Part shown: in pieces, positions 1-6,804 of the stretch
Numbering within the stretch: the first letter of the stretch is position 1
Layout: every line of letters starts with the position of its first letter
Program-made: the position numbers and the translations under genes
Virus record (IMG/VR): IMGVR_UViG_3300039382_000253
Span: 1-9,142 of that record
Direction: 5' to 3' (one strand)
Length of the DNA stretch: 9,142 nucleotides
DNA from: a virus
Lineage: Duplodnaviria > Heunggongvirae > Uroviricota > Caudoviricetes
Notes under the pieces: generated by a model
Seen by the model: only the letters and a program-made list of their open reading frames with translations
Databases searched by the model: none
What the model was told of the DNA's origin: nothing

Positions 1-886
<886 letters not shown>

Positions 887-915
<29 letters not shown>

Positions 916-1165
916 GGTTACCTCTGCTTTTTGAACGCATGTCACGTAACTTCTTAATGTGTTCTGCCGTTTCGATCTCTTCTGCTATCCGATCTGCATC
1001 AGCTTTATTCACAGGTTCAAAGTCATGATTAAAGCGGAACATGCTGGCGATACATGTTCTGCCTTTTCGGATGTAGTGAACTTTGTTGTGGGTAGAACGC
1101 AGGATTTTGCAGGGAGTGCCGTGGTGGTCGACGTACCAGGTGTTAGGAAAAATGATTCTGAACAT
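887..1165 (-). CDS. Hypothetical 92-aa protein in the exo-xis region (Ea8.5 position), possible Cys/His metal-binding motif
   Basis: ATG at 1165..1163 preceded by GAGGTG about 6 nt upstream. Contains C19, H26, H30, C38 (TPCKILRSTHNKVHYIRKGRTC). Size and position next to xis resemble lambda Ea8.5 (93 aa), but I cannot confirm homology from memory. Confidence 0.5.
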
Positions 1166-1212: not shown

Positions 1213-1431
1213 TCACAGTCCCCATTGTTTGTTCTTAAGTTCGATCTCCTCCTGGCAACTTGCACAAGTCCGACAACCCTGAACAGCCAGGCGTCTTCGC
1301 TCATCTATCGGATCGCCACACTCACAACAATGAGTTGCGGATACAGTCTGGTAGTTCTGACGACGCATTTTTATTGCTGTATTGCGCTGTAATTCTTCGA
1401 TTTCTGATGCTGAATCAATGATGTCTGCCAT
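1213..1431 (-). CDS. TraR/DksA-family C4 zinc-finger protein (lambda Orf73-like)
   Basis: 72 aa with CCECGDPIDERRRLAVQGCRTCASC, a CxxC-(17)-CxxC zinc finger typical of TraR/DksA C4-type proteins. ATG at 1431..1429 with a GGAAG-like SD. Confidence 0.7.
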   Translation of the reverse strand: MADIIDSASEIEELQRNTAIKMRRQNYQTVSATHCCECGDPIDERRRLAVQGCRTCASCQEEIELKNKQWGL

Positions 1432-1484
1432 CTTCCATTAATCCCTGAATTGTTGGTTAATACGCTTGAGGATGAATGCGAACA

Positions 1485-1507
1485 ATAAAAAAGGAGCCTG
1501 TAGCTCC
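1485..1507 (-). terminator. Weak candidate intrinsic terminator for leftward transcription
   Basis: On the minus strand, GGAGC-TACAG-GCTCC (plus 1493-1507) is followed by TTTTTTATTG. The stem is only 5 bp, so this is weak. It overlaps a possible 29-aa ORF (see findings). Confidence 0.3.
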
Positions 1508-1529
1508 CTGATGATTTTGCTTTTCATGT

Positions 1530-1811
1530 TCACCGTTCCTTAAAGACGCCGTTTAACATGCCGATCGCCAGGCTTAAATGAGTCGGTGTGAATCCCATCA
1601 GCGTTACCGTTTCGCGGTGCTTCTTAAGTACGCTACGGCAAATGTCATCGACGTTTTTATCCGGAAACTGCTGTCTGGCTTTTTTGATTTCAGAATTAGC
1701 CTGACGGGCAATGCTGCGAAGGGCGTTTTCCTGCTGAGGTGTCATTGAACAAGTCCCATATCGGCAAGCATAAGCACACAGAATATGAAGCCCGCTGCCA
1801 GAAAAATGCAT
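1530..1811 (-). CDS. Hypothetical small protein of the exo-xis region; start uncertain
   Basis: Open frame 1530..1844 on the minus strand, but the codon at 1844 is TTG. In-frame ATGs are at 1811..1809 (93 aa) and 1745..1743 (71 aa); neither has a strong SD. No recognisable motif. Confidence 0.4.
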   Translation of the reverse strand: MHFSGSGLHILCAYACRYGTCSMTPQQENALRSIARQANSEIKKARQQFPDKNVDDICRSVLKKHRETVTLMGFTPTHLSLAIGMLNGVFKER

Positions 1812-1821
1812 TCCGTGGTTG

Positions 1822-2379
1822 TCATGCAGCCTCCCGACGGGCAAGAATCCTTGAGCCGAACGCCATCAACTCTCCACGATCAACGGTCGTAAAGTGGCAG
1901 TGTGTACGGGGGTATGGGTGCCAGATAATGAGCATCGAGCCTTTATTATTTCCACTGACGGGTTTCTCAGTGAGTGGGTTAATAAATGCCAGTCGTCCTG
2001 CCGTGATGAATCTGACCTCACTGGCGGTTTGTATCGCTTCATGAAACCATCCGACAGATGTGTCAGCAGGCAATAACATTACACATCCCACACTACTGAA
2101 TTTGTTTTCAGTGGCTGCCTTTTTCACAAAAGGGGAAATATTGCTGTATGGTGGATTCAACCAGACATAACCAGAGGCATATCCCATTGCTTCAGGCCAT
2201 GAAGTGGTTAATGTGTTCTGCTCCTGTGAGATAAAAAGCCGACATAGTCGGTTTTTTTCGCTGGCGGCAGCATCAAGTTGAAAAACGAACTCTGCATTAA
2301 GCGCAGCAAAAATCTCTGGTGGTGTGCGCCAGCTGTCGCGATGTTCGGCAGGAGTATTGCTTCCGGTGAAATCAGTCAT
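1822..2379 (-). CDS. Phage Dam-family DNA N6-adenine methyltransferase (orphan)
   Basis: 185 aa containing WLNPPYSN, the (D/N)PPY catalytic motif IV of N6-adenine methyltransferases. ATG at 2379..2377 with a GGGGG SD about 5 nt upstream. No adjacent restriction endonuclease ORF. Confidence 0.75.
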   Translation of the reverse strand: MTDFTGSNTPAEHRDSWRTPPEIFAALNAEFVFQLDAAASEKNRLCRLFISQEQNTLTTSWPEAMGYASGYVWLNPPYSNISPFVKKAATENKFSSVGCVMLLPADTSVGWFHEAIQTASEVRFITAGRLAFINPLTEKPVSGNNKGSMLIIWHPYPRTHCHFTTVDRGELMAFGSRILARREAA

Positions 2380-2533
2380 ACAGCCCCCGTTTATTATTTA
2401 TCGCCTCAGCCAGCCGCTGTGCTTTCAGTGGATTTCTGATAACAGAAAGGCCGGGAAATACCCAGCCTCGCTTTGTAACGGAGTAGATGAAAGTGATCGC
2501 GCCTACCCGGATATTATCGTGAGGATGCTTCAT
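2372..2533 (-). CDS. Small 53-aa ORF immediately downstream of exo (lambda orf60a position)
   Basis: Hand-translated as [53 protein letters not shown]. Its ATG (2533..2531) overlaps the exo stop as ATGA, and its stop overlaps the Dam start (TATGACTGA). Not in the supplied ORF track, presumably because it is below the length cut-off. Confidence 0.45.
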
Positions 2534-3210
2534 CGCCATTGCTCCCCAAATACAAAACCAATTTCAGCCAGTGCCACGTCCATTTTTTCGATGAACTCCG
2601 GCACCATCTCGTCAAAATTCGCCATGTACTTTTCATTCCGCTCAATCACGACATAATGCAGGCCTTCACGCTTCATACGCGGGTCATAGTTGGCAAAGTA
2701 CCAGGCATCTTTTCGCGTCACCCACATGCTGTACTGCACCTGGGCCATGTAAGCCGATTTTATGGCCTCGAAACCACCGAGCCGGAACTTCATGAAATCC
2801 CGGGAGGTAAACGGGCATTTCAGTTCAAGGCCGTTGCCGTCACTGCATAAACCATCGGGAGAGCAGGCGGTGCGCATACTTTCGTCGCGATAGATGATCG
2901 GGGATTCAGTAACATTCACGCCGGAAGTGAATTCAAACAGGGTTCTGGCGTCGTTCTCGTACTGTTTTCCCCAGGCCAGCGCCTTAGCATTAACTTCCGG
3001 AGCCACACCGGTGCAAACCTCAGCCAGCAGGGTGTGGAAGTAGGACATTTTCATGTCAGGCCACTTCTTTCCTGAGCGGGGCTTTGCTATCACGTTGTGA
3101 ACTTCTGAAGCGGTGATGACGCCGAGCCGTAATTTGTGCCATGCATCATCCCCCTGTTCGACAGCTCTCACGTCGATCCCGGTACGCTGCAGGATAATGT
3201 CCGGTGTCAT
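2530..3210 (-). CDS. exo: Lambda-type 5'-3' exonuclease (Red alpha)
   Basis: 226 aa, [50 protein letters not shown]..., matches lambda Exo as recalled over essentially the full length. Start overlaps the bet stop (ATGA). Confidence 0.95.
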
Positions 3211-3992
3211 GCTGCCACCTTCTGCTCAGTGGCTTTCTGTTTCAGGAATCCAAGAGCTTTCACTGCTTCGGCCTGTGTCAGTTCTGACGATGCGCGAATG
3301 TCGCGGCGAAATATCTGGGAACAGAGCGGCAATAAGTCGTCATCCCATGTTTTATCCAGGGCGATCAGCAGAGTGTTAATCTCCTGCATGGTTTCATCGT
3401 TAACCGGAGTGATGTCGCGTTCTGGCTGACGTTCTGCAGTGTATGCAGTATTTTCGACAATGCGCTCGGCTTCATCCTTGTCATAGATACCAGCAAATCC
3501 GAAGGCCAGACGGGCACACTGAATCATGGCTTTATGCCGTAACATCCGTTTGGGATGCGACTGCCACGGCCCCGTGATTTCTCTGCCTTCGCGAGTTTTG
3601 AATGGTTCGCGGCGGCATTCATCCATCCATTCGGTAACGCAGATCGGATGATTACGGTCCTTGCGGTAAATCCGGCATGTACAGGATTCATTGTCCTGCT
3701 CAAAGTCCATGCCATCAAACTGCTGGTTTTCATTGATGATGCGGGACCAGCCATCAACGCCCACCACCGGAACGATGCCGTTCTGCTTATCAGGGAAGGC
3801 GTAAATTTCTTTCGTCCACGGATTAAGGCCGTACTGGTTGGCGACGATCAACAATGCGATGAACTGCGCATCGCTGGCATCACCTTTAAATGCCGTCTGG
3901 CGAAGAGTGGTGATCAGTTCCTGTGGGTCGACAGAATCCATGCCGACACGTTCAGCCAGCTTCCCTGCCAGCGTTGCGAGTGCTGTACTCAT
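3207..3992 (-). CDS. bet: Lambda Bet single-strand annealing protein (Red beta)
   Basis: 261 aa, [66 protein letters not shown]..., matches lambda Bet as recalled. Confidence 0.95.
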
Positions 3993-3997
3993 CCGTT

Positions 3998-4294
3998 TTA
4001 TACCTCTGAATCAATATCAACCTGGTGGTGAGCAATGGTTTCAACCATGTACTGGATGTGTTCTGCCATGCGCTCCTGAAACTCAACATCGTCATCAAAC
4101 GCACGGGTAATGGCTTTTTTGCTGGCCCCGTGGCGTTGCAAATGATCGATGCATAGCGATTCAAACAGGTGCTGGGGCAGGCCTTTTTCCATGTCGTCTG
4201 CCAGTTCTGCCTCTTTCTCTTCACGGGCGATCTGCTGGTAGTGACGCGCCCAGCTCTGAGCCTCAAGACGATCCTGAATGTAATAAGCGTTCAT
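3998..4294 (-). CDS. gam: Gam (GamS form), RecBCD inhibitor
   Basis: 98 aa, [60 protein letters not shown]..., matches lambda GamS. Upstream DNA is lambda-like but has a stop in the GamL frame and no in-frame ATG, so only the short form is encoded. Confidence 0.9.
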
Positions 4295-4369
4295 GGCTGA
4301 CCTCCTGAAAATGGCTGTGAAAATATCGCCCGCGAAATGCCAGGCTGATTAGGAAAACAGGAAAGGGGA

Positions 4370-4660
4370 TTAGTGATTCAGGCCGTTACCGCGTCCGTCG
4401 AGAAAAACTTCCACGAGCAAATCACGGGTATAAGTGCGCTCGATGCCGCGATGCAGATAAAGCCGTCCGCGTAAATTAGCTGATGCAGTCCAGGTACCAT
4501 CTTTGTGTTTGACCAGCATTCCTGGCATGACCGCACCTCGATTAACGGTCTGCGTTCCATAATGTTGATGAACCATAAAAACTCCTGCCCGTAAGCTGGG
4601 CTGCTGAACATATAGAGACTTCTGCGCGTATTCAGGCGGTGGATGGCCGCCGGTTGTCAT
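4370..4660 (-). CDS. Hypothetical protein in the kil position, not homologous to lambda Kil; start uncertain (4660 gives 96 aa, 4576 gives 68 aa)
   Basis: Shares lambda kil's frame and stop codon (TAA inside TCACTAA) but its C-terminus (...[14 protein letters not shown]) is unlike lambda's (...WILILKLRSSKSIH, back-translated from recalled lambda DNA). The ATG at 4576..4574 has AGGAG 5 nt upstream; the ATG at 4660 has GAGG about 10 nt upstream. A second long frame overlaps it, so coding status is not certain. Confidence 0.4.
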
Positions 4661-4825
4661 AACTAAGCCGCCTCGTTGAAGCGACTAAGGTATGAAATGT
4701 TGAGTTAATTTCAGCTGGTCACACCGACGTTCACGCGTCCGTTTCACCCCTCGCACTCCCCGAAGCCTGCTGAAATTCAAACTGCGGATCTAAGCGGTCA
4801 TCGCAACGGTGAATCAGGTAGTTGC

Positions 4826-4900
4826 CGTATCGTTGTGTTGTTGCGATGAACTTATTTAAAACTATAGTTGTTTTATCGTCAACAACAAAAGTTGTTTTAT
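4826..4900 (-). promoter_or_regulatory. Putative oL/pL: operator-like repeats with a leftward promoter
   Basis: Palindrome AACAACAAAAGTTGTT at 4881-4896; 10-mer GTTGTTTTAT repeated at 4867-4876 and 4891-4900; GTTGTGTTGTTG at 4832-4843. Minus-strand -35 TTGACG (plus 4877-4882) with TTTAAA/TTAAAT 16-17 bp downstream. Half-sites resemble the oR sites. Confidence 0.4.
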
Positions 4901-5023
4901 TGGTTGCTTTAGATATAACTGGTTGTATTTAGGATGGATTTATTTTGTGACTTGAATCGCATAGCGATAACTGAAGCGAGGTTATGGTGGTTTTTTTAAC
5001 GGTGTGTGTGATGAGGGGAGGGC

Positions 5024-5050
5024 AAAAGAAAACCCGGCACGGTGACCGGG
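5024..5050 (-). terminator. Candidate rho-independent terminator downstream of the repressor gene
   Basis: On the minus strand, CCCGG-tcaccgtg-CCGGG followed by TTTTCTTTT, about 120 bp past the repressor stop. The stem is only 5 bp but all G/C. Confidence 0.4.
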
Positions 5051-5171
5051 ATTCTTACGCCGTTAGGTAAAGATATTATTGCGGTGGCTTAATATTACTA
5101 CCTAGAGCAAAGATAGGAATTAGTTCTTTACTGAATGAGCACAATGCCCAGTTGATAATTTTTAATTGGTA

Positions 5172-5861: not shown

Positions 5862-5965
5862 AGTCCAAATGTACAACCAAGGTTTTATTCCATCAAACGA
5901 AAATGGTTGTTGACTAAAAACAACCATGGTTTTAATCTTGATTCAAATTAACCACGGAGGTTGTT
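5862..5965. promoter_or_regulatory. oR-like switch region: three operator-like sites with divergent pR (rightward) and pRM (leftward)
   Basis: Sites ACAACCAAGGTTTT (5873-5886), AAAATGGTTGTT (5900-5911, reverse orientation AACAACCATTTT) and AACAACCATGGTTTT (5919-5933). pR: -35 TTGACT 5910-5915, 17-bp spacer, -10 TAATCT 5933-5938. pRM on the minus strand: -35 TTGATG (plus 5891-5896), 17-bp spacer, -10 TACATT (plus 5868-5873), 6 nt before the repressor ATG. Confidence 0.55.
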
Positions 5966-6264: not shown

Positions 6265-6804
6265 ATGCAACCACTTACATACCAACAGACTAGCGGATTT
6301 AGCCCGACTGCGGTGATAAATCGTTCTCAAACAAAACAGGTGCCAGGCCACGAAAAAATCCGTGATGCCGTCCGCGCCTGGTCGGCTGTAGATAATCAGG
6401 ATGTCGTTGCCACACTCATTGTGAATGAGTATCGGGAGCAGGGCGGCGGCACCATCGATTTCCCTGATGATGTCAGCCGTGCACGCCAGAAGCTGTTCCG
6501 CTTCCTCGATAACAAATTCGATTCTGAAAAATACCGAAATAACGTGCGTGAACTGACCCCGGCAATTCTGGCGGTACTACCGCTGGAATATCGCGGTTAC
6601 CTGGTTGAGCAGGATAGCTTCATGGCTAGGTTGGCTGAAATGGAAAAGGAACTCAGTGAGGCAAAACAGGCTGTCATTCTCAACGCACCACGCCACCAGA
6701 AACTGAAGGAAATTAGTGAAGGTATTGTGTCGATGTTTCGTGTGGACCCAGATCTGGCTGGTCCATTGATGGCGATGGTTACTACCATGCTGGGGGCGAT
6801 ATGA
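6265..6804 (+). CDS. 179-aa protein in the cII position, possibly a YdaT-like regulator
   Basis: AAGGAG SD at 6254-6259, 5 nt before the ATG. No similarity to lambda CII. C-terminal region (LAEMEKELSEAKQAVILNAP...) looks like an amphipathic helix or coiled coil. Family assignment is tentative and from memory only. Confidence 0.55.
   Translation: MQPLTYQQTSGFSPTAVINRSQTKQVPGHEKIRDAVRAWSAVDNQDVVATLIVNEYREQGGGTIDFPDDVSRARQKLFRFLDNKFDSEKYRNNVRELTPAILAVLPLEYRGYLVEQDSFMARLAEMEKELSEAKQAVILNAPRHQKLKEISEGIVSMFRVDPDLAGPLMAMVTTMLGAI

Follow-up and report, generated by a model that had tools for sequence, protein, structure and literature searches.

The window analysed here is the full 9,142-nucleotide (nt) stretch of IMG/VR virus record IMGVR_UViG_3300039382_000253, a Caudoviricetes sequence, and we addressed the identity and the likely role of one open reading frame (ORF) on its minus strand, at positions 1822-2379. 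The ORF encodes a member of the small phage T1/HP1/VT2 Dam family of N6-adenine DNA methyltransferases (PF05869/TIGR01712), and it stands in a leftward lambdoid early region at the very position that orf63 takes in phage lambda. The gene, two conserved segments within it and the stretch in which the window departs from lambda are as follows.

1822-2379, minus strand: coding sequence of the orphan phage N6-adenine DNA methyltransferase (185 residues, ATG start, TGA stop; PF05869/TIGR01712)
2146-2157, minus strand: codons of catalytic motif IV, NPPY (residues 75-78), invariant in alignments with the VT2, T1, HP1 and Phi93 Dam proteins
2260-2283, minus strand: codons of FQLDAAAS (residues 33-40), the first beta-strand and a conserved Asp, a presumed motif I-like segment binding S-adenosylmethionine (AdoMet)
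1826-2376, minus strand: segment non-homologous to lambda, which replaces lambda 31009-31193 (the body of orf63), as delimited by blastn breakpoints and junction sequences

The family match of the ORF is far beyond chance. Residues 6-177 aligned with positions 1-168 of the 169 in the PF05869 profile, "DNA N-6-adenine-methyltransferase (Dam)", at E 2.3e-56 and 190.5 bits against a curated cutoff of 28.1; the NCBIfam equivalog TIGR01712 (phage N-6-adenine-methyltransferase) gave 165.6 bits against a cutoff of 97.05, phrog_111 (DNA methyltransferase) was matched at E 1.5e-77, and the best PADLOC model was 'oMTase, orphan methyltransferase'. PF05869 was the sole Pfam match, so that the protein falls outside PF02086 (MethyltransfD12, alpha class). 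The NPPY of the ORF agrees with the motif IV pattern (N/D)PP(Y/F/W), and it is placed near the N-terminal third of the protein (residue 75 of 185), unlike the DPPY of PF02086, which lies in the C-terminal half after the target-recognition domain. Across the ORF protein and the VT2, T1, HP1 and Phi93 Dam proteins 22 columns were invariant, all of them kept by the ORF by construction: D15, W17, T19, P20, L35, D36, N43, L57, W61, N75-Y78, M101, L102, F112, E121, I125, R129, F132, N144 and K146. L35 and D36, identical in all five aligned sequences, belong to the FQLDAAAS segment, for which the structural model described below places a strand at residues 33-36. A preliminary description, made from the letters alone, had proposed a Dam-family N6-adenine methyltransferase with an NPPY motif; the profile matches and the predicted fold bear this out, the motif lies at residues 75-78 (window 2146-2157), and the domain searches that it had named as a check assigned the protein to a methyltransferase family rather than to a non-methyltransferase one.

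A search of the PDB with the protein sequence returned no relative, the top match being the unrelated CutA protein at E 0.28, and the fold was therefore judged on a predicted model. The AlphaFold model, built from 50 homologues, had a mean predicted local distance difference test (pLDDT) score of 84.8 and a predicted template modelling (pTM) score of 0.82, and it showed an AdoMet-dependent fold resembling those of N6-adenine methyltransferases. The nearest solved structures were all enzymes of that activity; the match spanned the catalytic core only, with 145 of the 185 residues aligning to the catalytic domains of larger enzymes. In the ORF protein the conserved Asp (LDAAAS, residues 35-40) comes before NPPY (75-78), and a separate target-recognition domain is lacking. 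The invariant residues R129, F132, N144 and K146 fall in the least confidently modelled segment. To our knowledge, no solved structure exists for any PF05869 member. The way in which such a bare core, of 140-185 residues, reads GATC is a structural question for the PF05869 family and not one for this locus. The layout, with Asp before NPPY and no separate recognition domain, is the known peculiarity of the family, and for M.Phi93DAM the NPPY was noted as the only recognisable motif (PMC4190342).

Comparison with lambda by blastn placed the borders of the gene precisely. Window 1236-1825 is 95.8% identical to lambda 30418-31008 and window 2377-4376 is 97.8% identical to lambda 31194-33193, and between these two blocks 551 nt in the window stand for 185 nt in lambda. 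Identity extends through the ATG common to orf63 and the methyltransferase gene and picks up again at the ATGA stop/start junction, so that the swap left in place both the ribosome-binding context (GGGGG, 4 nt ahead of the ATG) and the overlap of stop and start. These results demonstrated a gene-for-gene cassette swap of the methyltransferase for orf63 at exact ORF boundaries. The lambda gene (DUF1382) shares with the methyltransferase gene its position, start codon, ribosome-binding context and downstream ATGA junction, whereas its product is an unrelated, non-homologous protein of 63 residues with no assigned biochemical function. Lambda and the Stx phages have been described as sharing orf60a, orf63, orf61 and orf73 in highly conserved form (PMC3824215). 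The window does not carry this complete set: orf60a (DUF1317), an orf61-like ORF and, at the orf73 position, a TraR/DksA ORF are present, and orf63 is absent, with the methyltransferase gene in its place. The locus thus illustrates lambdoid mosaicism cleanly, with the breaks falling exactly at gene borders, and the 'highly conserved' orf63 proves replaceable.

A tblastn search with the ORF protein matched the PF05869-type family in 2063 phage records. The closest phage relatives belong to the Enterobacter phages ENT1 and BHUENT (75% identity) and CobraSix (73%) and to Erwinia phages (62-68%). In CobraSix the PF05869 domain is the C-terminal part of a 637-residue fusion with a C5-cytosine methyltransferase (PF00145; locus L008, 2133-4046), whose gene sits between exo/RecT and the zinc-finger/excisionase/integrase genes, that is, in the same slot. 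The domain pair PF00145 and PF05869 was also observed in several database proteins (P0050, P0060, P0068, P0069, P0072 and P0087). In other enterobacterial prophages, metagenomic and genomic relatives (71-80% identity) are flanked by a recombination module (ExoX-like or YqaJ-RecT) on one side and by xis/int on the other; the gene directly follows an intact DUF1317 ORF in one lineage (L015/L016) and frameshifted DUF1317 remnants in another (L017). Other relatives occupy the nin region, namely those of Erwinia phage 49 (68%) and mEp044 (54%) and the Stx-phage/434 gene (47%). Given these varied positions in exo-xis and nin regions, the gene is a mobile accessory cassette of temperate-phage early operons. 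Against four relatives, the rate of non-synonymous substitution (dN) was 0.14-0.27 with synonymous sites saturated; the ratio to the synonymous rate (dN/dS) was 0.10-0.16, computable for two comparisons only because dS was saturated for most pairs. Low dN with saturated synonymous sites thus indicates purifying selection on a functional protein.

The relatives with reported specificity point to the target of the enzyme. The ORF protein is 46.6% identical to orf32 of VT2-Sakai (M.EcoVT2Dam) over 178 residues, 44.5% identical to T1 Dam over the core, and ~39-40% identical to both HP1 Dam and Phi93_04 (M.Phi93DAM), and in pairwise comparisons the VT2, T1 and HP1 Dam proteins are only 33-38% identical to one another. 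HP1 Dam is reportedly specific for GATC, from work of Piekarowicz and Bujnicki in 1999. Because the ORF protein is 39-47% identical to four GATC-reported members that are themselves so divergent (three compared), GATC is its likely target. GATC is the stated target of M.EcoVT2Dam (PMC6602927), M.EcoT1Dam has been described as a GATC-modifying enzyme, and M.Btr190III, 35% identical to M.EcoT1Dam, was cloned and shown to methylate GATC (PMC4996451); for M.Phi93DAM, single-molecule real-time (SMRT) sequencing together with DpnI/DpnII digestion showed GATC methylation and DpnII protection (PMC4190342). The parsimonious prediction, which we regard as quite likely, is that the ORF protein methylates adenine N6 in GATC. 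The preliminary statement that specificity could not be read from the sequence thus seems too pessimistic, as GATC can be inferred from relatives at this level of identity.

The genes on either side of the methyltransferase gene, with the repressor gene of the same strand, are listed below.

2372-2533, minus strand: orf60a homologue (DUF1317), whose stop overlaps the methyltransferase start by 8 nt and whose start forms an ATGA with the exo stop
2530-3210, minus strand: lambda-type exonuclease gene (exo), the operon gene upstream of orf60a
1742-1825, minus strand: unannotated 27-codon hydrophobic ORF (MTTTECIFLAAGFIFCVLMLADMGLVQ), linked through ATGA overlaps with the methyltransferase stop on one side and the next ORF on the other
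1530-1745, minus strand: orf61-like ORF of 71 residues (phrog_303)
1213-1431, minus strand: TraR/DksA zinc-finger ORF at the orf73 position
887-1165, minus strand: DUF4222 ORF
751-945, minus strand: helix-turn-helix excisionase-like (xis-like) remnant
5172-5861/5927, minus strand: cI-like S24 repressor gene

The leftward order on the minus strand is cI-like, kil, gam, bet, exo, orf60a, methyltransferase, 27-codon ORF, orf61-like, TraR-like, DUF4222 and xis-like. No restriction endonuclease was found among the neighbours across the 9.1-kb window by Pfam, PHROG or annotation, and PADLOC, run on eight genes, found no restriction or defence protein among them. The methyltransferase gene is therefore an orphan. 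The preliminary description had already placed the gene between exo and xis with no neighbouring endonuclease; both points hold, with exo at 2530-3210, the xis-like ORF at 751-945 and all neighbours assigned other identities. It had also noted overlapping start and stop codons with the orf60a-position ORF and exo, which is correct in part: the methyltransferase ATG (2377-2379) and the orf60a stop (2372-2374) overlap by 8 nt (ATGACTGA) and orf60a is joined to exo by an ATGA, but the methyltransferase gene itself does not overlap exo. The ATGA with the exo stop is formed by the second ATG of orf60a (2533), which is the start annotated in RefSeq and in the isolated Escherichia phage PhiR30_1 and most likely the true one. 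On the other side, an ATGA joins the methyltransferase stop to the start of the 27-codon ORF, with GGGAGG 6 nt before that start and within the methyltransferase 3' end, and the stop of the 27-codon ORF overlaps the orf61-like ATG in the same way. From these overlaps, translational coupling of the methyltransferase gene is plausible.

Two observations concern the ORFs next to the methyltransferase gene. The 27-codon peptide is identical in lambda and matches no PHROG family; the single nucleotide change from lambda is silent in its frame but exchanges Y/H when read in the overlapping orf61 frame. Identity across this region is 95% or higher in each of the 179 phage records, too close for divergence to gauge the coding potential of this ORF. 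The annotated orf61 of lambda (61 residues; lambda locus L002, 3158-3343) contains a run of 7 A, as in phage O276, whereas the window (1530-1745), PhiR30_1, phage 434, Stx2 II and E. coli ST2747 have a run of 6 A. With 6 A the orf61-like frame runs on to ...KKARQQFPDKNVDD...GVFKER, giving 71 residues from MTPQQ or 93 from an upstream ATG, and the annotated orf61 of lambda looks like a frameshift allele. The orf61-like product is annotated as 'cell division protein ZapA' in Stx2 II and as 'putative membrane protein' in 434.

Window 756-9142 matches an E. coli ST2747 prophage at 100% identity; that prophage occupies the DLP12 position, where the order is tRNA-Arg (argU), intD, the window genes including ren, and then emrE and ybcK. 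The identical protein in that prophage is WP_000129285.1, with the RefSeq name 'phage N-6-adenine-methyltransferase', and PhiR30_1 also encodes an identical protein. With window 1700-2500 (the gene and its flanks) as query and at least 80% of it covered, the arrangement was observed in 244 of 5426 complete E. coli genomes, where it is annotated 'phage N-6-adenine-methyltransferase | DUF1317 family protein | hypothetical protein'. PhiR30_1 was the only one of 50,697 phage records to have it; 246 other records matched the flanks without the arrangement, and those inspected (lambda, O276, 434 and Stx2 II) hold orf63 in the slot. The protein cluster at 90% identity has 537 member sequences, again under the NCBI name 'phage N-6-adenine-methyltransferase'. 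The gene is thus already known and correctly named in hundreds of genomes, as an ordinary member of a well-populated, experimentally anchored family; searches of the literature on exo-xis methyltransferases, PhiR30_1, WP_000129285 and PF05869 found nothing on this gene. At the other end of the leftward genes, bases 1-755 (plus strand) are the end of an IS3-family insertion sequence (IS) element, 99.6% identical to ISEc31 transposase copies, which abuts the excisionase-like remnant. The int gene is not within the window; the ST2747 prophage, identical in other respects, has intD rather than the IS at the ~756 junction.

Several features of the prophage stand beside these findings. The window is a far less decayed version of the DLP12-position prophage, keeping kil, gam, bet, exo, the repressor, cro-like and YdaT-like genes, O, P and ren, and the left arm of the DLP12-position prophage, including the integrase (locus L003), is 98.3% identical to PhiR30_1. 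A comparable IS-next-to-DUF4222 arrangement was seen in only one complete E. coli genome, at 92.8% identity. The ORF at the cII position (6265-6804, plus strand; 179 residues) encodes not a lambda-type CII but a protein with a YdaT_toxin domain (PF06254, E 8.5e-30), like the one in the immunity region of the Rac prophage.

Three candidate control elements bear on the expression of the methyltransferase gene.

4867-4886, minus strand: operator-like 20-mer with TTGACG, the probable oL/pL, upstream of kil, with a related copy elsewhere in the window
5906-5925, plus strand: the related operator-like 20-mer copy, between the cI-like and cro-like genes
2437-2469, minus strand: tL3-like intrinsic terminator, a hairpin with a T-rich tail inside orf60a, ~70 nt upstream of the methyltransferase ATG

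The operator-like 20-mer (GTTGTTGAC...AAAACAAC) embeds outward-facing TTGAC(G/T) hexamers and was matched twice in the window against 0.05 matches expected by chance; the two copies are probably the oL/pL and oR/pR operators of this immunity type. A promoter scan found no consensus leftward promoter, and the pL assignment is drawn from the operator-like repeat only. Placed there, oL/pL would put the methyltransferase gene ~2.5 kb into the leftward early operon.

Taken together, we consider it likely that the ORF is a functional orphan AdoMet-dependent N6-adenine methyltransferase, probably directed at GATC and probably protective, carried as a pL-operon cassette in the orf63 slot. We propose that the gene would be co-transcribed with kil-gam-bet-exo-orf60a from a pL-type leftward operon upon prophage induction or infection, and that it would be translated, probably, through the chain of overlapping start and stop codons. 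The likely role of the enzyme would be the full methylation of replicating phage DNA, which could shield that DNA from nucleases of the DpnII/MboI type, which cut unmethylated GATC, when the host has no Dam or when Dam cannot keep up. In the lysogen, the methyltransferase would be expected to be silent. The fusion of the CobraSix homologue to a C5-cytosine methyltransferase in the same slot fits protective methylation.

The points that weigh against this proposal concern expression in the first place. The tL3-like hairpin (9-bp stem with 6 GC pairs) lies just upstream of the methyltransferase gene, and at the corresponding position in phage O276 a 'tL3 Rho-independent transcription terminator' is annotated; in lambda, N is required for read-through of tL3. 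No N-like antiterminator ORF was found between the putative pL and kil or between kil and cI (4577-5171), and an Rfam scan of the whole window for a put-like antiterminator or other RNA returned nothing at E <= 0.1. Moreover, the IS element stands in place of the int side, and the prophage occupies the DLP12 position, which is usually defective. Because of the upstream terminator and the lack of an N-like ORF between kil and cI, expression of the methyltransferase in this IS-disrupted prophage is doubtful. The gene might then be a silent passenger, a relic that is intact yet not expressed in its defective prophage and that does nothing for the cell at present, and we give this alternative serious weight, somewhat short of an even chance. 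The DLP12 position (argU, intD ... ren, emrE), the ISEc31-like element against the xis remnant and the missing int all agree with it, and prophage methyltransferases are typically unexpressed in lysogens (PMC5778455; PMC4659465). However, the ORF is intact, with a protein identical to that of an isolated phage, and the repressor, cro-like, O, P, exo, bet and gam genes are all intact ORFs in the window. This alternative concerns expression in one host and is compatible with the biochemical assignment.

The interval between kil and cI differs in PhiR30_1, which has two extra genes there (locus L001, 5577-6931). We considered these as candidates for N and rejected them, since they encode a DUF6932 protein and a 310-residue protein without a Pfam match; together, beside the repressor gene, they may form an accessory or defence cassette.

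Specificity is the other side on which the proposal can be questioned. Substantial off-target methylation was observed for M.Btr190III (PMC4996451), so that members of PF05869 can be relaxed in specificity, and searches of the literature turned up no experiment on the ORF protein or on a relative more than 50% identical to it. A GATC enzyme would also seem redundant in E. coli hosts, which have a Dam of their own. The window contains 32 GATC sites against 36-45 expected, which is no signal either way, and the counts of other 4-mer palindromes in it showed no informative bias. The protein could therefore be an active adenine methyltransferase with relaxed or non-GATC specificity, giving broad protection against restriction as M.EcoGII and Hia5 may do. 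The absence of a target-recognition domain from what is a bare catalytic core agrees with such an activity, as does the apparent redundancy in a Dam+ host, and prophage methyltransferases have often been described as promiscuous (PMC4659465). We nevertheless regard this as unlikely, for GATC is the primary motif of the VT2, T1, Phi93 and M.Btr190III enzymes despite 33-38% identity among those compared, the ORF keeps every column that is invariant among the characterised members, and the known non-specific enzymes are of other classes (M.EcoGII beta, Hia5 alpha). Kinship of the ORF with M.EcoGII/M.EcoGI, with Hia5 and with M.EcoGIX (SAY) was rejected, as these are, respectively, of the beta class, of the alpha class and a plasmid-borne single-strand-specific enzyme.

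A wider possibility, to which we assign a small chance, is that orf63 and the methyltransferase are functional alternatives that tune lysogeny and induction through the GATC state, or else that the specificity is relaxed or different and gives broad anti-restriction cover. If the former were true, the GATC methylation state, through SeqA sequestration, mismatch repair and replication initiation, would steer phage development; if the latter, a subfamily less than 50% identical to any tested enzyme would provide that cover. It is very unlikely that the enzyme acts mainly as a regulator, with GATC hyper-methylation altering SeqA binding, mismatch repair, replication timing or the lysis/lysogeny decision from the regulatory slot of orf63. 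The replacement of orf63 is precise, and exo-xis ORFs including orf63 have been reported to influence lysogenisation and prophage induction (PMC3824215). However, replacement at a mosaic boundary does not imply equal function. Nor is the slot specific, with related copies in the nin region of other phages and beside the terminase genes in Phi93, and the CobraSix cytosine-methyltransferase fusion fits protection better. That the substrate is RNA or another non-DNA molecule is scarcely credible.

Small phage orphan Dam-type methyltransferases are common, and beyond a correct annotation the significance of this gene is small. What our analysis adds is the cassette boundaries against orf63, the position between recombination and integrase genes, the GATC prediction and the upstream tL3-like terminator. 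Among the known systems, M.EcoVT2Dam (orf32 of the Stx2 phage VT2-Sakai) is likewise an orphan PF05869 enzyme with NPPY from an E. coli lambdoid phage, of 175 residues against 185 here. Its gene, of a type that 933W-like Stx phages and phage 434 carry as well, is flanked by ninB and ninE homologues in the rightward nin region, whereas the ORF lies in the leftward exo-xis region, and at ~47% identity the two belong to different subfamilies. In VT2-Sakai, the 933W-like Stx phages and 434, orf63 occupies the exo-xis slot that here holds the methyltransferase gene. T1 Dam (M.EcoT1Dam), the founding member of the family, shares the invariant residues with the ORF; however, it is a protein of 237 residues, extended by 45 at the N-terminus and with 14 residues inserted ahead of the conserved GR(L/I)xF segment, and its gene adjoins helicase and resolvase genes in a virulent siphophage. 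Of the same family are HP1 Dam (orf13 of Haemophilus phage HP1), encoded after rep in a P2-like phage, and M.Phi93DAM of Lactococcus phage Phi93, which has only 140 residues and a gene placed between the terminase genes. By contrast, E. coli Dam and T4 Dam (PF02086, alpha class) are unrelated to the ORF protein at the sequence level, with 9-10% identity, and differ in motif order. E. coli Dam has 278 residues; the ORF protein is ~90 residues shorter and has no separate target-recognition domain, and the similarity between the two is confined to 108 core residues at 9% identity. E. coli Dam is thus an analogue of the ORF protein and not an orthologue.

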